Part shown: positions 4,868 through 53,057 of the stretch, in pieces
Position numbering within the stretch: position 1 is the stretch's first letter
How the letters are laid out: each line of letters opens with the position of its first letter
Position numbers and translations under genes: made by a program
Source of the DNA: Candidatus Omnitrophota bacterium
GTDB taxonomy: Bacteria; Omnitrophota; Gorgyraeia; JABMRN01; RBG-13-46-9
Assembly: GCA_024542975.1 (NCBI GenBank)
Contig: JAMXCZ010000002.1
Location: 1 to 62,098, forward strand
Direction of reading: 5' to 3'
Length of the DNA: 62,098 nucleotides
Notes under the pieces: generated by a model
The model's database searches: none
Seen by the model: the letters and a program-made list of their open reading frames with translations, nothing else
What the model was told of the DNA's origin: nothing

Positions 4868-4887
4868 GACCGGTTTTACTTTAGAAA

Positions 4888-4941
4888 ACAGGGACACATT
4901 TTATTTTTCTTCCGAAAAATAAGATATGTCCCTGTTTTTTT
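4888..4941 (+). terminator. rho-independent terminator (long two-part hairpin)
   Basis: ACAGGGACA...TTATTTTTC-ttcc-GAAAAATAA...TGTCCCTGT followed by T7. Confidence 0.75.
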
Positions 4942-9432: not shown

Positions 9433-9990
9433 ATGAATGAAACACACCACTATGTAGTAAATCATTACTTCGAAGAAAATCCCTCGGGCCACTGCGCTAA
9501 ATTATACGATGAGCTGAAGCATAAATATGGCGTGACAGTCATCTTTGAGCCGGGATCCCCTGGTGATAAAGCAGAACTTCTGCCGGATGTCAGGATTCGC
9601 GGAGAGGTTATATACCTATGCGAAAAAAAATGGGTTATTAAACTTAATGGGCTCGAAGACCCCGATATTGACAGGGTTATTTCGCATGAGCTTTTGCATA
9701 TCGCGCTCAGGTATAGAAACCGCCTGCCTTACGCCGACACGGAAAAGCTTACGAAGAACCAGATAATCGCTCTGAATGCGGTAGAAAACAGAATTATCGA
9801 GCCTGCGTTGAATAAAATATACGGCCAAAAAGATCACACTGAGTGGGGAGATGAATACGAGGAAATATTGGGCAAGATGCGCCCGTATTTGAGCGAGATA
9901 AGCGGCGTGATAACGAGGGATAGGTATCTTGAAGTCCTCGGCGAATGCTTGAAAACGTGCGGCGAATCTTTGCCGCCGTTTCTTTTGTAA
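9433..9990 (+). CDS. hypothetical protein with an HExxH (HELLH) motif, possible metallopeptidase
   Basis: ISHELLHIAL is the only recognisable feature. Confidence 0.4.
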   Translation: MNETHHYVVNHYFEENPSGHCAKLYDELKHKYGVTVIFEPGSPGDKAELLPDVRIRGEVIYLCEKKWVIKLNGLEDPDIDRVISHELLHIALRYRNRLPYADTEKLTKNQIIALNAVENRIIEPALNKIYGQKDHTEWGDEYEEILGKMRPYLSEISGVITRDRYLEVLGECLKTCGESLPPFLL

Positions 9991-10054
9991 TGAAGCTCCA
10001 GTACCGGTAGGGCAGGTTTAAACCCCCCCTACCGGTACTGGGGCTTCATTTTTC
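9991..10054 (+). terminator. strong rho-independent terminator (22-bp stem, one mismatch)
   Basis: TGAAGCTCCAGTACCGGTAGGG-14 nt-CCCTACCGGTACTGGGGCTTCA followed by TTTTT. Confidence 0.8.
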
Positions 10055-15621: not shown

Positions 15622-15710
15622 AAAGTTTTCTAACCTGGTTAGATTTGCCGGGTTAGAAGGTTTTAGAAAAGTTTTCTAACCCGGCAAATCTAACCAGGTT
15701 AGAAAACTTT
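15622..15710. repeat. perfect 37-bp inverted repeat with a 15-nt spacer, in the cinA/recA divergent region
   Basis: Arm 15622-15658 (AAAGTTTTCTAACCTGGTTAGATTTGCCGGGTTAGAA) is the exact reverse complement of arm 15674-15710. The repeat contains six TCTAACC-type half-sites. Confidence 0.9.
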
Positions 15711-25972: not shown

Positions 25973-26013
25973 TAAAAAATTATTTTTATAAAATTATAAT
26001 AACGGAGGTCAAA

Positions 26014-26721
26014 ATGGTAGCTAAAAATAAGTGGCTTGTAGGTATTGTTATAAGTCTAATTGGAATTGCTTTAGGTGTAGTGGGAATTGTTAAATTTAGC
26101 AGCATATTTTTTCAAAGAACAACAAATGGTGATTCCATTGTAATTAGTACAGGTGATATAATTGGAAATCCAATTTTTAACTTTAGTCGTCCAGCAGGTG
26201 TAGCCGATGTTAGCTCAAGAGAGCTGGGCAAATTAAAAGAAAAAATCGAAGAACTAGAAAGCTATAGAGGCTCTTTTCCAAATAGACCAAAATTGGCCAT
26301 CGCAAATCCTCGAGTAACAATGATAAATTACACAGCAGATGTTGTTCCCGCAGGTCTTGTAAAAGGTGGTTTCGAAATAACGTTTTTTAACATAGGGGGA
26401 GTTGAAGCCAAAGACTTAGTTACTAAATGGACAATAGTTGACAACGGAAGAAGAATTACTGGATTAAATGAGTGGCTTACAGAATACTTAGGACAACGCC
26501 CATTAGTCATTAAGAACATCCCTTCAGAAAATGCAAGAAGTTTAAAATACGTCCCGGATATGACAACTTATGGAAAAGGAAAAATAGCACTCACGCTCGA
26601 TTATAGCTATATCAATGCAAATACAGGCGAAACCTATTCGGAACGATATAAAGGGTTTGTTCTTTATGAAATACCCAAAGATAATAAACCAATAGACTAT
26701 AATTTCTCAAAATTGCAATAG
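26014..26721 (+). CDS. N-terminally membrane-anchored protein of unknown function (island protein B)
   Basis: TM helix WLVGIVISLIGIALGVVGIV. The C-terminal domain has RPKLAI...ITFFNIGGVEAKDL...LDYSY...EI. Confidence 0.5.
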   Translation: MVAKNKWLVGIVISLIGIALGVVGIVKFSSIFFQRTTNGDSIVISTGDIIGNPIFNFSRPAGVADVSSRELGKLKEKIEELESYRGSFPNRPKLAIANPRVTMINYTADVVPAGLVKGGFEITFFNIGGVEAKDLVTKWTIVDNGRRITGLNEWLTEYLGQRPLVIKNIPSENARSLKYVPDMTTYGKGKIALTLDYSYINANTGETYSERYKGFVLYEIPKDNKPIDYNFSKLQ

Positions 26722-26750
26722 TAGGCAAATCCAGTGGGTTTATCAAAAAT

Positions 26751-27524
26751 ATGAAAATAACTTTGACCTTCATAATTGGCTTTTTAATCGGAAGTTTAGT
26801 CATACATAAATTATTTGTAACAAAAAAAGCATTTAGAAATAAAGTACGAATACGAATTAGAGAAATTATAACTGTGGCAAGTATAATAGCTGCTATTTGT
26901 TTTTCTGGTTTTCAGGCGCATTTTTTACGTAGAGATTTCGTAGTGAGGAATAGACCATATATAACAATTAAGAAGAAGAGTGATGAGCATTCTACAAAAG
27001 AACACGAAGATCGATTATTAAACAGTAGAAATAGATATTTAATCGATGTAGGATTAGATGAAGATGAAAAAGCAGAATTTATAAACTCCCCTATTTCCTT
27101 TACAAATGTAGGTAAGACACCCGCTAAAATAGAACTGGTTGAATGTACTATTGGTAAATACGATCCAAACACGCATTATACCAGTGAAATTTTATATTCT
27201 ATAAGATTCCATAAAAATGAATTTGGTGTTGTAAAAAGAAAAAATGTTATTTTTCCAGGAGAGCATTGTTATTATGAAATGAAAATCAAACAAATTCTCG
27301 AACCCAATCCCTTAAAAAAAGATTATAATAAAAGAAGGAAAGAAATATATGAAGAATTAAAGAGAAGCATAGAAGAAAAACATTTATTTCTTGTAGTAAC
27401 AGTTGAATATACTTTTTATGATGAACATAGAATTGGTAAGCCGAGGCCCTATTATACAAGAAAGGTTTGGGAAATATCTCCTCAGTATAAAAATATTGAA
27501 ACATATCATTATGACATGGAATAG
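26751..27524 (+). CDS. 2-TM membrane protein of unknown function, distant paralog of island protein B
   Basis: RPYITI...ISFTNVGKTPAKIEL...VEYTFYD...EI parallels the motifs of 26014..26721. Confidence 0.5.
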   Translation: MKITLTFIIGFLIGSLVIHKLFVTKKAFRNKVRIRIREIITVASIIAAICFSGFQAHFLRRDFVVRNRPYITIKKKSDEHSTKEHEDRLLNSRNRYLIDVGLDEDEKAEFINSPISFTNVGKTPAKIELVECTIGKYDPNTHYTSEILYSIRFHKNEFGVVKRKNVIFPGEHCYYEMKIKQILEPNPLKKDYNKRRKEIYEELKRSIEEKHLFLVVTVEYTFYDEHRIGKPRPYYTRKVWEISPQYKNIETYHYDME

Positions 27525-27615
27525 CTTAGGAGCAGAAATTTATTGTTCTAACCAATACCAAAGTAATGATTGGGGAATTCGAAGGACACAGCACTCAATT
27601 ATTAAAGGCTTAAAA

Positions 27616-27628
27616 TGAGGATTTAAGG
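27616..27628 (+). repeat. 13-bp direct repeat TGAGGATTTAAGG, right copy (supplies the hisI SD)
   Basis: Identical to 25211-25223. Confidence 0.9.
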
Positions 27629-27635
27629 AGATATC

Positions 27636-28013
27636 ATGATTAACAAGTTAAATTTTGGAAAAGATGGGCTTATTCCCGCAATCATACAGGATCATAAAAC
27701 GGGCAAGGTGCTTACGCTTTGCTACATGGACAAAAGCGCTTTGGAGAAAACGCTGGAAGCTGGCAGGATCTATGTTTTCAGGCGCTCAAAGGGAAGGATA
27801 ATGCTTAAAGGCGAAACTTCGGGGTGCACCCAGACCGTAAAAGAGGTCTTTGTAGATTGCGCGGATAACTCGCTGCTTTTCAAGGTCGAACAAAAAAAGG
27901 CTGCCTGTCACAAAGGGTATTTTACCTGTTTCTTCAGGCGGATTAAAAAAGACGATTGCTGTGAGGTTACGGAAAAACGGGTATTTAACCCGGACGAAGT
28001 GTATAAAAAATAA
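27636..28013 (+). CDS. hisI: phosphoribosyl-AMP cyclohydrolase
   Basis: GLIPAIIQDHKTGKVLTLCYMDKSALEKTLE.G...F.RSKGR...KGETSG. Confidence 0.9.
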   Translation: MINKLNFGKDGLIPAIIQDHKTGKVLTLCYMDKSALEKTLEAGRIYVFRRSKGRIMLKGETSGCTQTVKEVFVDCADNSLLFKVEQKKAACHKGYFTCFFRRIKKDDCCEVTEKRVFNPDEVYKK

Positions 28014-31986: not shown

Positions 31987-32060
31987 CCCTGTCATTCCCG
32001 CGAAAGCGGGAATCCATGGATGCTCTAATCTGGATTCCCGCTTTCGCGGGAATGACAGGG
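31987..32060. repeat. inverted pair of REP-like palindromic units (30-bp perfect arms, 14-nt spacer)
   Basis: CCCTGTCATTCCCGCGAAAGCGGGAATCCA (31987-32016) is complementary to TGGATTCCCGCTTTCGCGGGAATGACAGGG (32031-32060). Each unit is itself a TTCCCGC-GAAA-GCGGGAA hairpin. Confidence 0.9.
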
Positions 32061-36144: not shown

Positions 36145-36172
36145 CTGTCATTCCCGCGAAAGCGGGAATCCA
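36145..36172 (+). repeat. third copy of the REP-like unit CTGTCATTCCCGCGAAAGCGGGAATCCA
   Basis: Same unit as 31989-32016. It generates the spurious ORF 35988..36173 (...RFRGNDR...). Confidence 0.85.
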
Positions 36173-43769: not shown

Positions 43770-44381
43770 ATGATAGCATTTGTGGTATCGCTTTTTTTTG
43801 CGTATCTCGTAGGCTCAATACCGACAAGTTTTATATTCGGAAAATTACTGAAGAAGGTGGACATAACCAAGCACGGTAGCGGCAATGCGGGCGCCACAAA
43901 TGTCTTTCGCGTAGTCGGAAAAATTCCGGCCGTTATCGTCCTTGCGCTCGACATTTTTAAGGGTATTTTCTCGGTTGCATTTTTACCGTATATCTTTTTC
44001 AATAATTATATCGGCATAACCATGGGGTTCGGTGTTTACAAGATACTGTTAGGCGCCGCCGTCATAACCGGGCACGTGTGGAGCGTATTTTTGAAAGGAA
44101 AAGGCGGCAAGGGGGTCGCTACGACGGCGGGTGTGCTCATGGTGCTGGCGCCGAAAGTATTTACGGCCAGTCTGGGTGTCTGGCTTATCACTTTTTCGCT
44201 TTTCAGGGTCATTTCAGTCGCGTCCGTAACAGCGTCCGTATTTCTTCCTATAGCGGCAATACTTTTCCGCTTACCCATGCATAATGTTTTATTTTTCGTA
44301 TTTTTATGCATACTATCGACCTATAAGCACAAAGCCAATATACGGCGCCTGTTGCGGGGAGAGGAAAAGAGATTATTTTGA
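43770..44381 (+). CDS. plsY: glycerol-3-phosphate acyltransferase PlsY
   Basis: YLVGSIPTS..., GSGNAGATNV. ATG 43770 lies after the der stop. Confidence 0.9.
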   Translation: MIAFVVSLFFAYLVGSIPTSFIFGKLLKKVDITKHGSGNAGATNVFRVVGKIPAVIVLALDIFKGIFSVAFLPYIFFNNYIGITMGFGVYKILLGAAVITGHVWSVFLKGKGGKGVATTAGVLMVLAPKVFTASLGVWLITFSLFRVISVASVTASVFLPIAAILFRLPMHNVLFFVFLCILSTYKHKANIRRLLRGEEKRLF

Positions 44382-44392
44382 AGGAACAGGTT

Positions 44393-44571
44393 GCTATGGG
44401 GAAGATTGTAACATGGGAACGTTTCCCTTCGCCATAACCCCTTATCCTACAAACACTTACATGCAATACAATTGCAATTTTCAGCGAGGTTCAGCGCCTG
44501 AAAATTGCAATCGTATCACTCGTAACGGTATATACAGTAATGGGTTACGGCAATGCGAAATGCCCCCATGC
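44393..44571 (+). other. putative multi-stem structured region downstream of plsY
   Basis: Closing helix GCTATGGGG/CCCCATGC. Internal hairpins: GGGAA-cgt-TTCCC (44415-27), a 14-bp stem ATTGCAATTTTCAG/CTGAAAATTGCAAT (44470-44511), and CGTAAC/GTTACG (44521-50). Confidence 0.35.
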
Positions 44572-44623
44572 TAAAAATGGCCGATTTCAACCGATTAGAG
44601 TATAAAAAAGGTAGTTTCACGAT

Positions 44624-44652
44624 TTGACTATCCAGAGTTAGTCAGGTATACT
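44624..44652 (+). promoter_or_regulatory. near-consensus sigma70 promoter, TTGACT-17-TATACT
   Basis: Hexamers at 44624-29 and 44647-52. Confidence 0.6.
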
Positions 44653-44680
44653 ATAGGTAGAAAATTAAACAGTAAGCGTC

Positions 44681-44710
44681 GCAGCTTTCAGCGCTGAAGG
44701 CGCATTTTTT
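44681..44710 (+). terminator. intrinsic-terminator-like hairpin + T6, about 25 nt downstream of the predicted start site
   Basis: GC(A)GCTTTC-agcgct-GAAGGCGC followed by ATTTTTT. Confidence 0.5.
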
Positions 44711-44761
44711 ATCCGATTTAAGTAAAAAGATTTAAAAAGTTTTTGATGGAAGGAACCTGAA

Positions 44762-45124
44762 ATGAGAGAGATTATATTCAAAAACTTAAATACGCCGCGC
44801 GCCAACAAACGTGATATTTCCATGGAGGAGATCGTGGAGAGGGACGGGGTGGTGTCTTCTACGAAAAAACGCTCGATGTATTTCGTGCGTGAAGTCCACC
44901 ACATGAAAACCCACGATGCGCTCCAAAAATGGGTGGCGAACAGACAAAAATCTCCCGGCTTGGGTAAGAAATTTTTCCATATTTTGCATAAATACTCTAC
45001 GAAAGATCACGAGGATAAACTGGTCTGCAAGATGCGCGGATCGTTTTGCATAATTTCAGACAAGGATGTTTACGACATAGTTTTTGTGCATGCGATAAAA
45101 ATCTGCATTCACAAAACGGAATAG
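44762..45124 (+). CDS. hypothetical protein (120 aa, His/Lys-rich), orphan
   Basis: ATG lies after GGAAGGA. I recognise no domain. Confidence 0.45.
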   Translation: MREIIFKNLNTPRANKRDISMEEIVERDGVVSSTKKRSMYFVREVHHMKTHDALQKWVANRQKSPGLGKKFFHILHKYSTKDHEDKLVCKMRGSFCIISDKDVYDIVFVHAIKICIHKTE

Positions 45125-45129
45125 GAAAC

Positions 45130-45255
45130 ATGGAACAACACATCGGAAGTCTTAAGAGCATCTTTCACATGGCAATGGTTGTTATCGTCATGATAAAGGT
45201 TCACATGATCGATAAAAAATTACGCATGCTCGAGAGAAAATTTGTAACGAAATAA
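45130..45255 (+). CDS. possible 41-aa hydrophobic-core peptide
   Basis: MEQHIGSLKSIFHMAMVVIVMIKVHMIDKKLRMLERKFVTK. Weak SD. A terminator follows. Confidence 0.3.
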   Translation: MEQHIGSLKSIFHMAMVVIVMIKVHMIDKKLRMLERKFVTK

Positions 45256-45257
45256 AA

Positions 45258-45287
45258 GTCCGCACCCAAAAAAAATGCGGCTTTTTG
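45258..45287 (+). terminator. terminator-like hairpin, CCGCA-loop-TGCGG + CTTTTT
   Basis: Short 5-bp stem with an A-rich loop and a T tract. Confidence 0.45.
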
Positions 45288-45361
45288 AGAGAGTGTGGGG
45301 ATTTCCCTCTACTCTCTTTTTTTATGCCTTTTTCCATTTGTGATATTCCGCAAGTCATATT

Positions 45362-45526
45362 TACACATCCCGGTAAGGGTAGGGGTGCCCTGCGTGCTGC
45401 GAATTCCGGCCTCAGCTAACTCATACAGGAGAAAATACAATAAGGAAACTCTATACAGTTCTCCTGTATGAGTGGATCTTCGGCCGGAATTTTCGCAATG
45501 CACCCGGGAGCCATACGGATGTGTAT
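45362..45526. repeat. long imperfect-palindrome element, copy 1 (inverted relative to copy 2)
   Basis: Helices TACACATCC/GGATGTGTA, AATTCCGGCC/GGCCGGAATT and CTCATACAGGAGAA/TTCTCCTGTATGAG, with a 25-nt apical loop. Confidence 0.8.
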
Positions 45527-45609
45527 AGAATTACCTCTCACCCTCCCCGGCACTATGCAGAAGCGACATGAAGACGAATCCGTAACTTAAGTGTGAAATC
45601 GCAGAAATG

Positions 45610-45793
45610 TGCGCTCCGGTCCGGTAGGGAAGCTAGTCCTTGGCACATTGCGAAAATTTTACCTCGAGATCCACCCAGACAGGAGAATTATACAGAGTTT
45701 CCTATATTGTGTATTCTCCTGGCTGGGTTAGCTGAAGCCAAAATTCGCGTGCCAAGGGCTAGCTTCCCTACCGGACCGGGGGGATGTAGCGCA
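45610..45793. repeat. long imperfect-palindrome element, copy 2
   Basis: A 31-bp helix (45616-45646 with 45749-45779) has a single T.G pair. An inner 14-bp helix (45674-87 with 45714-27) is also present. Loops are homologous to the reverse complement of copy 1. Confidence 0.8.
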
Positions 45794-45941
45794 ACTTGCG
45801 AAATGTTACATTTCTACACTCGAAAAGATAGGTGGCGGCTATTGCTTCTTGAGTCTGCGGCGGACTACGCGGTGGAGGAATAGGAAGAGGGTGTAGAGGA
45901 GGATGATTTCAGAGATAACAAAGAGCCAGCCGAAGTTTGTA

Positions 45942-47486
45942 TCAGTCAGAATGGTGAAGTCCACGGGCTACCCTCCGCTGTTTATCTCTTTCTACGATAA
46001 GTACTCTTGCTGTAAAATATATGAATCCGCCCCAGAAAAGAATCGCTATTAAGGCCATCATTACGATCGTAATGGGTGTAATTCCGATCGATGTAAACCC
46101 GGCACCTTGCGACACCGGTAAAATGACCGGCATAACACCGTTACTTTGCAGGATCTTTATGAGGGAAAGAATAAACAGGAGCCCCACAAAAATCGGCACA
46201 ACGGCTCGTATCCAGAACCTTATCGGCGTGTGGCTCAGTTTAACCCTCGCATTCTTATTCATCTCGTCAAACCCGCGGTTGCCCATAAAATATCCGACCG
46301 CGATTATGGCAAGTATGCCAAACACAGGGATAGCAAGTTGTCCGATTATTGTGTCCATTTTGGAAAGAAGCGCAAGTTTCGCGCCAATTCCGCCTTTTAC
46401 GAAGCCATTTAAGATAAAAGGAAACCCCATGACCCACAGTATGGCCCCTGTAATTAGTGCACTTTTTTTTCTGGGCCACCCGACTTCATCCTTAAGCCAC
46501 GCAATAGCAGGCTCCTGTATGCTTATGGCGCTCGATATGGCTCCGAACGCAAGCAGAATAAAAAACATCCCTCCAAATAAGTGCCCGCCCGGCATAGCCT
46601 CAAATACCTTAGGCAGTACGAAAAACGTAAGCCCGATCGACTCGGCCTTGCCTATAACGTTCCCAAAGCCAAGCGCAAATGCCGCCGGGAAAATCGCAAA
46701 TCCGGCCAGTATGCTCGCAGAGGTATTCCCAAGCGTCACAGCGAGCGCGTTTTGGGGTATTCCCCACTCGTCCTTCATGTAAGAACCGTAAATAAGCATA
46801 GCGCCCATCCCCAGGCTCAAAGTAAAAAACACCTGTCCCAACGCCGCAATCCACGTTTCAGGGTCAAGGAGCCCTGCCCAGCGCGGCCTCATATAAAACT
46901 CAATACCTTCCCATGCACCAGGCAATGTCACGCTTCTTATTGCAACGATTATGAGAAGCACAAAAAGCGCGGGTATCATGATCTTACACGCCCTCTCTAT
47001 ACCTTTACGGACCCCCAGAGCCAATATCCCGCTCGTCAGGCATACGGCAAGGAAGTGTACAAGAAATATCCACTTGCTCCCCAGAAACAACGCAAAATAT
47101 GCCTCCGTATCCTTCCCGAAATAGAGCCCCTCGAGAGAGGCAAAAACGAAAAATATAACCCAACTTGTTATAACGATGTAATAAGAATACAAAAAAAACG
47201 GCCCGATCACTCCCCATGCCCCTATGTCCCTTCCGAAAGGAAATTTTATCTTTTCAAACGCGCCGAGTGGGTCCCGCTTCGTGTGGCGGCCTAACACCCA
47301 TTCGCACATCATAGCGAAAATAGCAACACCCAACAGCAAAATAATATAAGGGATAAGAAATGAGGCGCCGCCGTATTTTCCGCAAAGGTACGGAAACCGC
47401 CAGATGTTTCCGAGGCCGATGGCCGTGCCGATCATCGCCGCGATCATTCCCCAGTGCGATTCCCAGGTTTCTCTCGCTTTGGCCAT
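45942..47486 (-). CDS. sodium-dependent transporter, neurotransmitter:sodium symporter (SNF/NSS) family
   Basis: GLGNIWRFPYLCGKYGGASFLIPY and about 11-12 hydrophobic helices. Confidence 0.9.
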   Translation of the reverse strand: MAKARETWESHWGMIAAMIGTAIGLGNIWRFPYLCGKYGGASFLIPYIILLLGVAIFAMMCEWVLGRHTKRDPLGAFEKIKFPFGRDIGAWGVIGPFFLYSYYIVITSWVIFFVFASLEGLYFGKDTEAYFALFLGSKWIFLVHFLAVCLTSGILALGVRKGIERACKIMIPALFVLLIIVAIRSVTLPGAWEGIEFYMRPRWAGLLDPETWIAALGQVFFTLSLGMGAMLIYGSYMKDEWGIPQNALAVTLGNTSASILAGFAIFPAAFALGFGNVIGKAESIGLTFFVLPKVFEAMPGGHLFGGMFFILLAFGAISSAISIQEPAIAWLKDEVGWPRKKSALITGAILWVMGFPFILNGFVKGGIGAKLALLSKMDTIIGQLAIPVFGILAIIAVGYFMGNRGFDEMNKNARVKLSHTPIRFWIRAVVPIFVGLLFILSLIKILQSNGVMPVILPVSQGAGFTSIGITPITIVMMALIAILFWGGFIYFTARVLIVERDKQRRVARGLHHSD

Positions 47487-52267: not shown

Positions 52268-52673
52268 AGCTCACCAGCGGGACTTCTGCTTCCCCGCCTT
52301 TATGCGTCCAATACACCGTAACAGTTACCTGTTTAAGGTTTGTTTCCGGCTCCGTAACTACGACTTCTCTTTGAAATACTGAAAACCCGGTCACGACTGC
52401 TTTGGCCTCATTCACAATGTTTGCGTAAGTGAGATTACGGATTTCTTCCATCCTCTCCTGCGCAAGATTCACAGCAATCGCAGTATTTTCCGCGTCGAGA
52501 GCACCTGCCATACCGCTTGAGAGTAACGAAACCACAGCAACAATCCCAACCCCAAAAAGAACGATCGCGATCATAACCTCCAGTAACGTAAAACCGTCGT
52601 TCGTCGTTCGTCGTTCGTCGTTCGTTGATCGTTTGGATATAGTGCGTTTTTTTTTAGTTACTAATGAAGGCAT
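52251..52673 (-). CDS. PilV/GspI-like pseudopilin with an unusually long 27-aa leader
   Basis: ...TTNDG/FTLLEVMIAIVLFGVGIV. Leader residues STNDERRTTND are encoded by the heptad repeat. Confidence 0.7.
   Translation of the reverse strand: MPSLVTKKKRTISKRSTNDERRTTNDGFTLLEVMIAIVLFGVGIVAVVSLLSSGMAGALDAENTAIAVNLAQERMEEIRNLTYANIVNEAKAVVTGFSVFQREVVVTEPETNLKQVTVTVYWTHKGGEAEVPLVSYVAAN
52596..52630. repeat. (GTCGTTC)4 + GTTGATC heptad array
   Basis: Read directly from the sequence. It is inverted relative to 53034-53057. Confidence 0.9.
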
Positions 52674-53014
52674 TTTATTAAGTTCATTAACATTTTGCTC
52701 TCATGGTTTAGGTCTTCCTCTAATTTTCCCATAGCATCGGAGGTCACGTATTTTCTCTTTTTGCCGATGATCAGCTGCGTTTCGAGCTCCGCGCAAGACC
52801 CTAACGATACATATAAGAACTGCTTATATTCCTTGCTATGATGCCGCACAAATCCCTCGGCAATATTCGAGGGAATACTCACAGCACATCTTCGCATTTG
52901 AGCAACAAGTCCATACTGTTCCTGTCTCGGGAACTTATCAGTAATTACGTATACATTGTCAACAATAGCAATACCTTTTTTCCAAACATTCAAATCTTTA
53001 TAAGACTTAACCAT
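52661..53014 (-). CDS. four-helix-bundle protein ('23S rRNA intervening-sequence protein' family, TIGR02436/PF05635-like)
   Basis: YKDLNVWKKGIAIVDNVYVITDKFPRQEQYGLVAQMRRCAVSIPSNIAEG....SKEYKQFL.VSLGSCAELETQL. Confidence 0.85.
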   Translation of the reverse strand: MVKSYKDLNVWKKGIAIVDNVYVITDKFPRQEQYGLVAQMRRCAVSIPSNIAEGFVRHHSKEYKQFLYVSLGSCAELETQLIIGKKRKYVTSDAMGKLEEDLNHESKMLMNLIKCLH

Positions 53015-53030
53015 ATCAATTTCACCAATT

Positions 53031-53057
53031 CACGAGCGACGAACGACGAACGACGAG
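53031..53057. repeat. CAC GAGCGAC (GAACGAC)2 GAG heptad array immediately 3' of the major pilin stop
   Basis: Its reverse complement matches 20 consecutive nt of the 52596-52630 array. Confidence 0.9.

Follow-up and report, generated by a model that had tools for sequence, protein, structure and literature searches.

Two inverted long fold-back elements at a gene-end junction in Candidatus Omnitrophota

Two units of about 190 nt, here called type A, were found in opposite orientation between two gene clusters of Candidatus Omnitrophota, in a contiguous stretch of 62,098 nt (the window). Type A is non-random and real, and only two copies, adjacent to each other, have been seen. On balance, and with modest confidence, we read it as a non-coding fold-back repeat that is specific to the lineage and belongs with REPIN, ERIC and MITE elements. 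Two copies of it would here face each other at a gene-end junction, and their paired changes would reflect the upkeep of a DNA hairpin. As such, type A is most likely selfish or non-autonomous repetitive DNA. The element itself would be mobile, its hairpin would be the substrate under selection, and further copies would be expected in the same genome. The initial annotation of this region had named three candidates, a structured non-coding RNA, a MITE/ERIC-like palindromic repeat and the ends of a single-strand transposon; the palindromic repeat is the best supported of these and the other two are less so.

The flanking-protein searches assigned the host to Candidatus Omnitrophota, the homologs of SNF, PlsY and hyp120 all being from this phylum. 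On the plus strand, the left block contains der, plsY, the conserved hyp120 (44762-45124, 120 aa) and a 41-aa gene. The operon of the last two ends at an intrinsic terminator with stem and T-run, T2 (45288..45325, plus strand), preceded by the hairpin T1 (45260-45280). Both T1 and T2 (45260-45325) are kept in relatives, and the sequence match to these ends at ~45329, about 10 nt short of copy 1. The right block, on the minus strand, comprises pilus genes, two response regulators, the SNF symporter gene and a conserved, hydrophobic small ORF of 41 aa (45839..45964, minus strand), which overlaps the 3′ end of the SNF symporter gene. The pilus operon also harbours a gene of the 23S-rRNA-IVP type, bounded by 25-nt inverted repeats. 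The small ORF, whose stop is 28 nt away from the copy 2 extension, forms the right edge of the intergenic gap. The true gap is thus ~45326-45838, and nearly all of it is occupied by the two type-A units. In each unit the 17-nt extension described below is placed nearest to the gene end running into that unit, and the two copies share one orientation relative to the local gene direction. The absence of RT, TnpA/TnpB and integrase genes nearby, noticed in the initial annotation, holds for the whole window, in which no transposase, integrase, RT or TnpB gene was found anywhere; a RAYT gene was found neither in the window nor in the gene tables of the fetched related loci. An origin in Firmicutes, from a plasmid single-strand origin (sso) or in an ICE context was rejected, since the flanking proteins are those of Omnitrophota and no plasmid or phage match was obtained. 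A 1.27-kb insertion carrying both hyp120 and the hairpins was likewise rejected, as both hyp120 and the 41-aa gene next to it are conserved in Omnitrophota; relatives have the two close to plsY, with a gene of ~185 aa or ~540 bp of DNA between plsY and the pair.

Each type-A unit consists of a 17-nt extension and an imperfect palindrome of 165-185 nt. The copy 1 unit spans 45339-45526 on the plus strand and the copy 2 unit 45610-45810 on the minus strand. The inverted copies are ~78-87% identical (local alignment of copy 1 45339-45509 with the reverse complement of copy 2, 45810-45637), and mean column identity is 87% over the inner 108 nt. The hairpins had been annotated at 45362-45526 and 45610-45793, the second as a homolog of the reverse complement of the first. 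Both were confirmed from the sequence, and the alignment agrees with their homology while making the homologous unit 17 nt longer on one side. The extension common to both units reads TGTRAYATTYCGCAAGT (45339-45355 and 45794-45810). It lies on the 5′ side of each unit and was identified by local alignment and as an inverted-repeat pair (TGTGATATTCCGCAAGT at 45339..45355 on the plus strand in copy 1; TGTAACATTTCGCAAGT at 45794..45810, read on the minus strand, in copy 2). As the extension lies outside the hairpin, the unit is asymmetric.

The copy 1 hairpin (45362..45526, plus strand) was delimited by folding and an inverted-repeat pair, and matched the covariance model at 45395-45504 (plus strand, 128 bits). 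It is built of a closing stem (45362-45370/45517-45525), a lower stem (45399-45411/45482-45496), an internal loop in which TCAGCTA (45412-45418) stands opposite GGATCTTC (45474-45481), a perfect upper stem of 15 bp (45419-45433/45459-45473) and an apical loop of 25 nt (45434-45458). An 11-nt deletion, seen by comparison with copy 2, has degraded the basal stem, in keeping with the decay of an old copy. The copy 2 hairpin (45610..45793, minus strand), delimited by folding and inverted-repeat pairs with a covariance-model match at 45642-45752 (minus strand, 130 bits), is intact. Its inner hairpin (45647-45748) has the loops of copy 1 and an upper stem of 15 bp with one A.G mismatch. The annotated 31-bp basal helix with a single T.G (45616-45646/45749-45779) was recovered as 97% complementary. 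The covariance model scored 128 and 130 bits for the copies in these orientations against 38 and 25 bits in the opposite ones, which makes their orientation unambiguous. The spacer of 83 nt between the units (45527..45609, no strand assigned) contained no repeat, ORF support, coding remnant, promoter-like site or dif-like site. The two ORFs listed across the elements, 45309..45503 on the minus strand and 45593..45883 on the plus strand, are present and have no family or homolog support.

Both copies fold far better than expected from their composition. The folding energy was −76.9 kcal/mol (z = −7.8) for copy 1 (45355-45535) and −114.5 kcal/mol (z = −11.9) for copy 2 (45605-45800), and among 200 dinucleotide shuffles per copy none folded as well. 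In the main hairpin 5 of 33 pairs were compensated and none was broken. Two of the compensated pairs are in the upper stem, where the initial annotation had described the replacement of two T-A pairs by C-G and G-C; these replacements are real, and three compensated pairs in the lower stem can now be added to them. The probability of at least five compensated pairs was ~1e-5 in a simulation in which the arms changed independently (12 substitutions in 66 paired columns), and controls with slid partners gave 0-1 compensated pairs. The paired changes in type A are thereby real. In the RNAalifold consensus, 42 pairs were common to both copies and six of these were compensated, both sides having changed with pairing kept; this level was reached by 11 of 500 shuffles, with n = 2 sequences and with DNA palindromes giving the same signal.

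The conserved loops had been taken, together with the covarying stems, as the mark of a functional RNA or of a DNA hairpin bound by a protein. The apical-loop core AGAGTTTCCT had been quoted correctly, and the internal-loop side TTAGCTGA is indeed identical in 8 of 8 positions. Taken as a whole the loops show no special conservation, the unpaired columns being more diverged (9/33, 27%) than the paired ones (12/66, 18%). The two strands fold equally well (−76.7/−78.5 kcal/mol for copy 1 and −112.5/−111.3 kcal/mol for copy 2), and with G.U counts by strand of 1/4 and 4/4 neither strand has an excess of G.U over A.C. In REPINs, a form of mobile DNA, substitutions compensated on the other side of the hairpin are described as common (PMC3116915). 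Together with the equal folding of the strands, the diverged loops and the lack of an Rfam family, this argues against taking covariation and loop identity as a sign of an RNA gene. A role of the long hairpins as intrinsic terminators was rejected, since no T-run follows either of them on either strand, and no sigma-70-like promoter was found in 45300-45900. The equal strand folding, the position of T2 before copy 1, the lack of a promoter-like site or T-run and the compensation known from REPINs all fit a palindrome maintained at the DNA level.

No further copy of type A was found in GTDB genomes, JGI metagenomes, IMG/VR, plasmids, phages or E. coli genomes, nor in ~150 kb of related Omnitrophota DNA or the rest of the window; the scans of the collections required exact matches of 18-24 specified bases, which diverged copies would escape. 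The GTDB scan with a pattern of apical loop and stem returned 19 matches, none aligning beyond the ~20-30-nt pattern, and the lone Firmicute match, when read directly, was inside a coding sequence. Two patterns gave only chance matches in IMG/VR. In the JGI metagenomes, the strict pattern gave no match and a pattern of the loops alone, which tolerates covariation in the stem, gave 11, all due to chance. The covariance model of the inner hairpin (R1), run with filters off on the window and with default filters on 13 related loci, matched the two known copies and otherwise generic hairpins only. A search of 1.84 billion proteins with the 96-aa ORF over copy 2, intended to catch spurious ORFs lying over other type-A copies, gave five weak matches to long repetitive proteins. 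With Rfam 15 nothing reached a gathering threshold across the whole window, and the E-value scan of 44000-47000 gave a single match at chance level, of 24.9 bits, to a plant miRNA precursor model whose gathering threshold is 130. Reading of the flanks of both type-A units and three copies of a second element, type B (below), identified no target-site duplication and no direct repeat in common. No conventional terminal inverted repeats were recognised on reading the type-A flanks.

Type A was absent from both orthologous sites in the relatives compared. Four relatives have rplM-rpsI-argCJBD after the SNF gene on the same strand, and the SNF-rplM gap measures 128, 227, 572 and 1035 bp and holds different hairpins or none. 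Elsewhere among the relatives, gpsA comes after hyp120, directly in L076 and after a few genes in L072, and in L075 a different palindrome occurs after hyp120. The orthologous sites are thus polymorphic for fold-back elements, being empty or holding other palindromes. The window joins two blocks that are adjacent in no relative compared, and type A is located exactly at the join.

Several unrelated families of dispersed 60-190-nt fold-back repeats are carried at gene ends by the Omnitrophota relatives. One of them, type B, has a decayed copy in the window (44406..44576, no strand assigned), detected by BLAST of the gap region and unrelated in sequence to type A. Its homologs occur at two loci of a close relative (L050 6639-6801 and L067 8173-8336) and are 86% identical to each other. 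In type B 9 of 61 pairs were compensated; the window copy has many broken pairs, as would fit the decay of an old copy. Two further palindrome families, with 94% and 90% identity between copies, were found in L052 and another hairpin of 174 nt in L050, and the window itself contains several near-perfect palindromes of 50-90 nt, mostly at gene ends. Homology of type A to type B or to the other palindrome families was rejected, as BLAST found none. A short motif, GCTCCRGTMCCGGTAGGG, is common to the basal stem of copy 2 and the terminator palindrome at 9989-10050; its shortness allows no conclusion.

In each of the three type-B copies, the strand that is antisense to the gene upstream gives a much more stable fold (−86.0/−56.9, −99.5/−90.0 and −94.5/−77.5 kcal/mol, better versus other strand), with G.U counts of 11, 7 and 6 on the better strand versus 2, 3 and 3 on the other. 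This strand-specific G.U pattern is the most promising lead for a real single-strand function. It is conceivable, if improbable, that type A and type B are not inert repeats and instead serve as single-stranded substrates, RNA or ssDNA, of a hairpin-recognising system peculiar to Omnitrophota. They might then be a new class of 3′-end structured RNAs or elements moved by an unrecognised enzyme. Such an enzyme would also drive genome rearrangement at gene ends; no RAYT, IS200-type or DDE transposase was seen.

In the sole independent assembly of the organism (ENA ERZ23499028), two contigs match the window at 100% identity. Both stop inside copy 1, the left contig at 45419 and the right contig at 45449. 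Measured inward from the unit ends of copy 1 (45339 and 45526), which were set independently by homology, the break points come after 80 and 77 nt. Their symmetry is with respect to the unit, not to the hairpin apex (~45446). Such geometry is what k~80 de Bruijn contigs would produce on entering an exact repeat of unit length, an argument that leans on the k-mer size assumed; low coverage at a strong hairpin could account for the breaks instead. It follows from this geometry that copy 1 probably has at least one further near-identical copy in the sample of that assembly. Contig ends were also found inside type B (L051) and inside a 61-nt palindrome (L074), and L075 is a fold-back chimera turning at the palindrome just after hyp120.

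A single contig (L001) contains copy 2 together with the spacer and the adjacent right arm of a second copy, and the inverted pair is for this reason real. The same cannot be said of the convergent junction, which may have been made by the assembler through a repeat-mediated, chimeric join within copy 1. The real genome would then have one type-A copy after hyp120, followed by gpsA, and another beside copy 2, followed by rplM. The order SNF then rplM-rpsI-argCJBD in all relatives and hyp120 then gpsA, directly or after a few genes, speaks for such a join, as do the two ERZ23499028 contigs that end inside copy 1, the 29 nt between them being supplied by the window alone. A misjoin across 45419-45449 would also explain the broken synteny. 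Nothing contradicts the join directly, and the inverted pair itself stays real under it; we regard it as a serious possibility while leaning slightly towards a genuine junction. If true, at least three copies of type A would be present at two loci, and the repeat reading would be strengthened, the identity of the element not being affected.

The lack of any other copy in the searches permits a reading without mobility, in which one gene-end fold-back gave rise to an inverted duplicate, for example through a template switch when a fork stalled or through the rearrangement that made the junction, and the two copies then diverged in place, its palindromy being kept by quasi-palindrome correction and not by selection. 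That the only two known copies are adjacent, inverted and 83-127 nt apart, at a synteny junction and with no transposase in the window, agrees with this. It leaves unexplained why both contigs stop inside copy 1 equidistant from the unit ends. An identity of ~80% moreover denotes old copies, yet five pairs are compensated and none is broken, which would need very efficient correction, and the neighbouring type-B family is demonstrably dispersed. We consider a purely local duplication unlikely.

The compensated pairs, far above chance, and the identity of the apical-loop core and of one internal-loop side in both copies could also mean that the copies are transcribed, as a 3′-UTR element of the upstream operon or as an independent small RNA, and that the hairpin is a functional RNA, for instance a protein-binding or stabilising one, whose stems covary under selection. 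Each copy has the same orientation to the operon running into it, the SNF/small-ORF operon has no terminator before copy 2, and the strand-specific G.U of 3/3 type-B copies suggests a single-strand function for at least one fold-back family here. Type A itself, however, has no strand asymmetry in folding and is more diverged in its unpaired than in its paired columns. T2 stands between the left operon and copy 1, 45300-45900 has no promoter-like site, no Rfam model matches, and the elements are absent at the orthologous sites of the closest relatives. Covariation tests with n = 2 are powerless beyond the simple null, and mobile DNA shows the same compensation. A structured RNA therefore seems distinctly unlikely. 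The inverted repeats with conserved loop motifs, at a synteny junction where GC skew and gene orientation switch (~45.5-46 kb), bring to mind a site-specific system as well, be it inverted recombinase or invertase sites, orphan ends of an HUH transposon or a fork-trap or terminus element. This we find highly improbable. The skew switch coincides exactly with the change in coding strand and no dif-like site is present, the best matches reaching 17-19 of 28 bases at unrelated places, on which grounds a replication terminus or dif site was rejected. An invertible segment was rejected too, as it would break both copies and the independent assembly breaks in copy 1 alone. The window contains no recombinase, transposase, TnpB or RTP/Tus-like gene, and the end hairpins of IS200/IS605 elements are far shorter than type A.

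For the lineage-specific repeat preferred here, the following course of events may be proposed. Fold-back elements would settle in the short spacers just past gene ends, and the hairpin, extruded as single-stranded DNA or as a cruciform, would be the form that is recognised or copied. A substitution in one arm would then persist only if matched in the other arm, which would explain the compensated pairs without an RNA function. The mobilising enzyme would be encoded elsewhere in the genome. Likely secondary effects would be stable RNA hairpins at the 3′ side of transcripts reading through from the SNF operon, hot spots of recombination and rearrangement, and broken or chimeric metagenome assemblies.

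If the repeat reading is right, type A is novel in sequence and conceptually an ordinary palindromic repeat, and its value is mostly practical and descriptive. New for the phylum is that Omnitrophota genomes hold many long fold-back repeats specific to their lineage; full-text literature searches on palindromic repeats or MITE brought up no description of them in Omnitrophota. The fold-back repeats break or chimerise metagenome assemblies, as seen from the contigs ending within them, from L075 and possibly from a false junction in the window. They also mark differences in gene order between close relatives, which matters when synteny or a terminus is inferred from MAGs. When two copies of a palindrome differ by compensated changes in their stems, this alone does not point to an RNA gene.

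Among the known systems, REPINs mobilised by RAYT resemble type A in being non-coding, extragenic and hairpin-forming, in being derived from inverted repeats, and in being often paired and free of target-site duplications. Compensatory changes keep the hairpin in REPINs (PMC3116915), as do the five compensated and zero broken pairs of type A. In REPINs the enzyme, RAYT, is supplied in trans by a single distant gene; for type A it is proposed to reside elsewhere in the genome. REP units measure ~20-40 nt and REPINs, whose two ends are highly conserved, ~70-110 nt, whereas type A is a near-continuous palindrome of 165-185 nt, along which conservation is spread, the most conserved blocks being the inner stems and the apical loop. 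The REPIN arrangement of two inverted short REPs (~20-40 nt) and a variable spacer was not found in type A.

The ERIC/IRU elements of Enterobacteria are imperfect palindromes of ~127 bp without coding capacity and with no known mechanism of mobilisation. Like type A they are long, intergenic, non-coding imperfect palindromes beside gene ends, in either orientation; they differ in phylum and type A is longer and without sequence similarity to them. E. coli records carry many ERIC copies, and blastn with type A (word 11, E ≤ 0.01) matched none of 5,426 E. coli genomes (20,395 records). Hairpin-forming MITEs, such as Correia/NEMIS of Neisseria and RUP/BOX of Streptococcus, are non-autonomous intergenic elements of 100-400 bp which may affect transcript ends. 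Type A shares with them the form of a non-autonomous-type intergenic element folding into a long hairpin. MITEs have TIRs matching a parent IS and target-site duplications. For type A no target-site duplication and no conventional TIRs were recognised; the whole unit is palindromic, and one end carries the unpaired 17-nt extension. As to the multiple copies of a MITE, two adjacent copies of type A were found and the geometry of the assembly breaks suggests another.

In IS200/IS605 elements and their miniature derivatives (PATEs), an HUH transposase recognises ssDNA hairpins, no target duplication is made and orientation is tied to the direction of replication. The sub-terminal hairpins of such elements are discussed in PMC3116915. 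Type A is similar in that its copies are oriented alike relative to the local gene direction and lack a target duplication. It differs in that IS200/IS605 hairpins are of ~20-30 nt, on the same strand and flank a gene or its remnant, as opposed to 165-185 nt, inverted and without TnpA/TnpB. With the families of Rfam 15 type A has in common a long hairpin, internal loops and compensated pairs, and it reached the threshold of no family; the strand-specific structure expected of structured RNAs is lacking in type A, whereas type B is strongly asymmetric. Having no target duplication as in MITEs, no REP ends or visible RAYT as in REPINs, no homology to ERIC and no Rfam family, type A is thus best described as a family that is new in sequence and whose general kind is already known.

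In the only independent assembly of the same organism, the contigs L055 and L001 both ended within copy 1 of the type A fold-back element (45339-45526, +), at window positions 45419-45449, and the 29 nt separating the two ends have the window as their sole source. Since copy 1 is thus broken from both sides, the convergent junction at type A, where the plus-strand plsY/hyp120 block meets the minus-strand SNF symporter block, together with the break in synteny relative to all relatives, may represent a repeat-mediated misassembly. The public contig L075 (ENA NODE_35682, 9666 bp) is a perfect fold-back chimera centred at approximately 4830, with the order gene, hyp120 (the conserved 120-aa gene left of type A), palindrome, and then hyp120 and the gene reversed; here the assembler reversed direction within the palindrome downstream of hyp120.

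Conserved small ORFs of 41 aa were located on either side of type A. The one immediately after hyp120 (45130-45255, +) was also called in L055 and in three other loci (L072, L073 and L074), and the other (45839-45964, -), which encodes a hydrophobic peptide and overlaps the 3′-terminal part of the SNF symporter gene, is also conserved in L050.

In relatives, a gene of about 185 aa and unknown function immediately follows plsY (L067 7627-8175; L072 6267-6830). This gene is missing from the window, and at 44382-44761 a type B fold-back element (44406-44576) occupies its place. Further type B copies were dispersed at different loci (L050 6639-6801; L067 8173-8336). In all three copies folding was far better on the strand that is antisense relative to the gene upstream, with 11, 7 and 6 G.U pairs versus 2, 3 and 3 on the other strand. 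Type A displayed no such strand-specific signal. We would not expect a simple deamination bias to be the source of the type B signal.

Additional long, near-perfect palindromes were detected in intergenic spacers of the window (15622-15710, 31987-32060, 36150-36169, 9989-10050, 4885-4938 and 2463-2511), the majority at gene ends. Among them were a perfect hairpin with 37-bp arms and a 30-bp-arm hairpin containing the motif ATTCCCGCN4GCGGGAAT, which occurs a second time at 36150. The sequence GCTCCRGTMCCGGTAGGG was common to the 9989-10050 palindrome and the basal stem of copy 2 (45610-45810, -). The palindrome at 2463-2511, with 23-bp arms, lies in the divergent spacer adjoining a Zeta-toxin-like P-loop kinase gene (1411-2310, -). 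Elsewhere, the GC content at 26000-28000 drops to 34% versus approximately 46-50% in the surroundings. This stretch separates the his cluster from the trp cluster, and its two ORFs (235 and 257 aa) had no Pfam match.

Finally, the type IV pilus operon contained a 117-aa gene (52661-53014, -) for a four-helix-bundle protein resembling 23S rRNA intervening sequence proteins and bAvd. Its flanking 25-nt inverted repeats, which consist of TCGTCGT heptamers, are 96% complementary and therefore delimit a hairpin-bounded cassette (52595-53056), in which respect it resembles rRNA intervening sequences.
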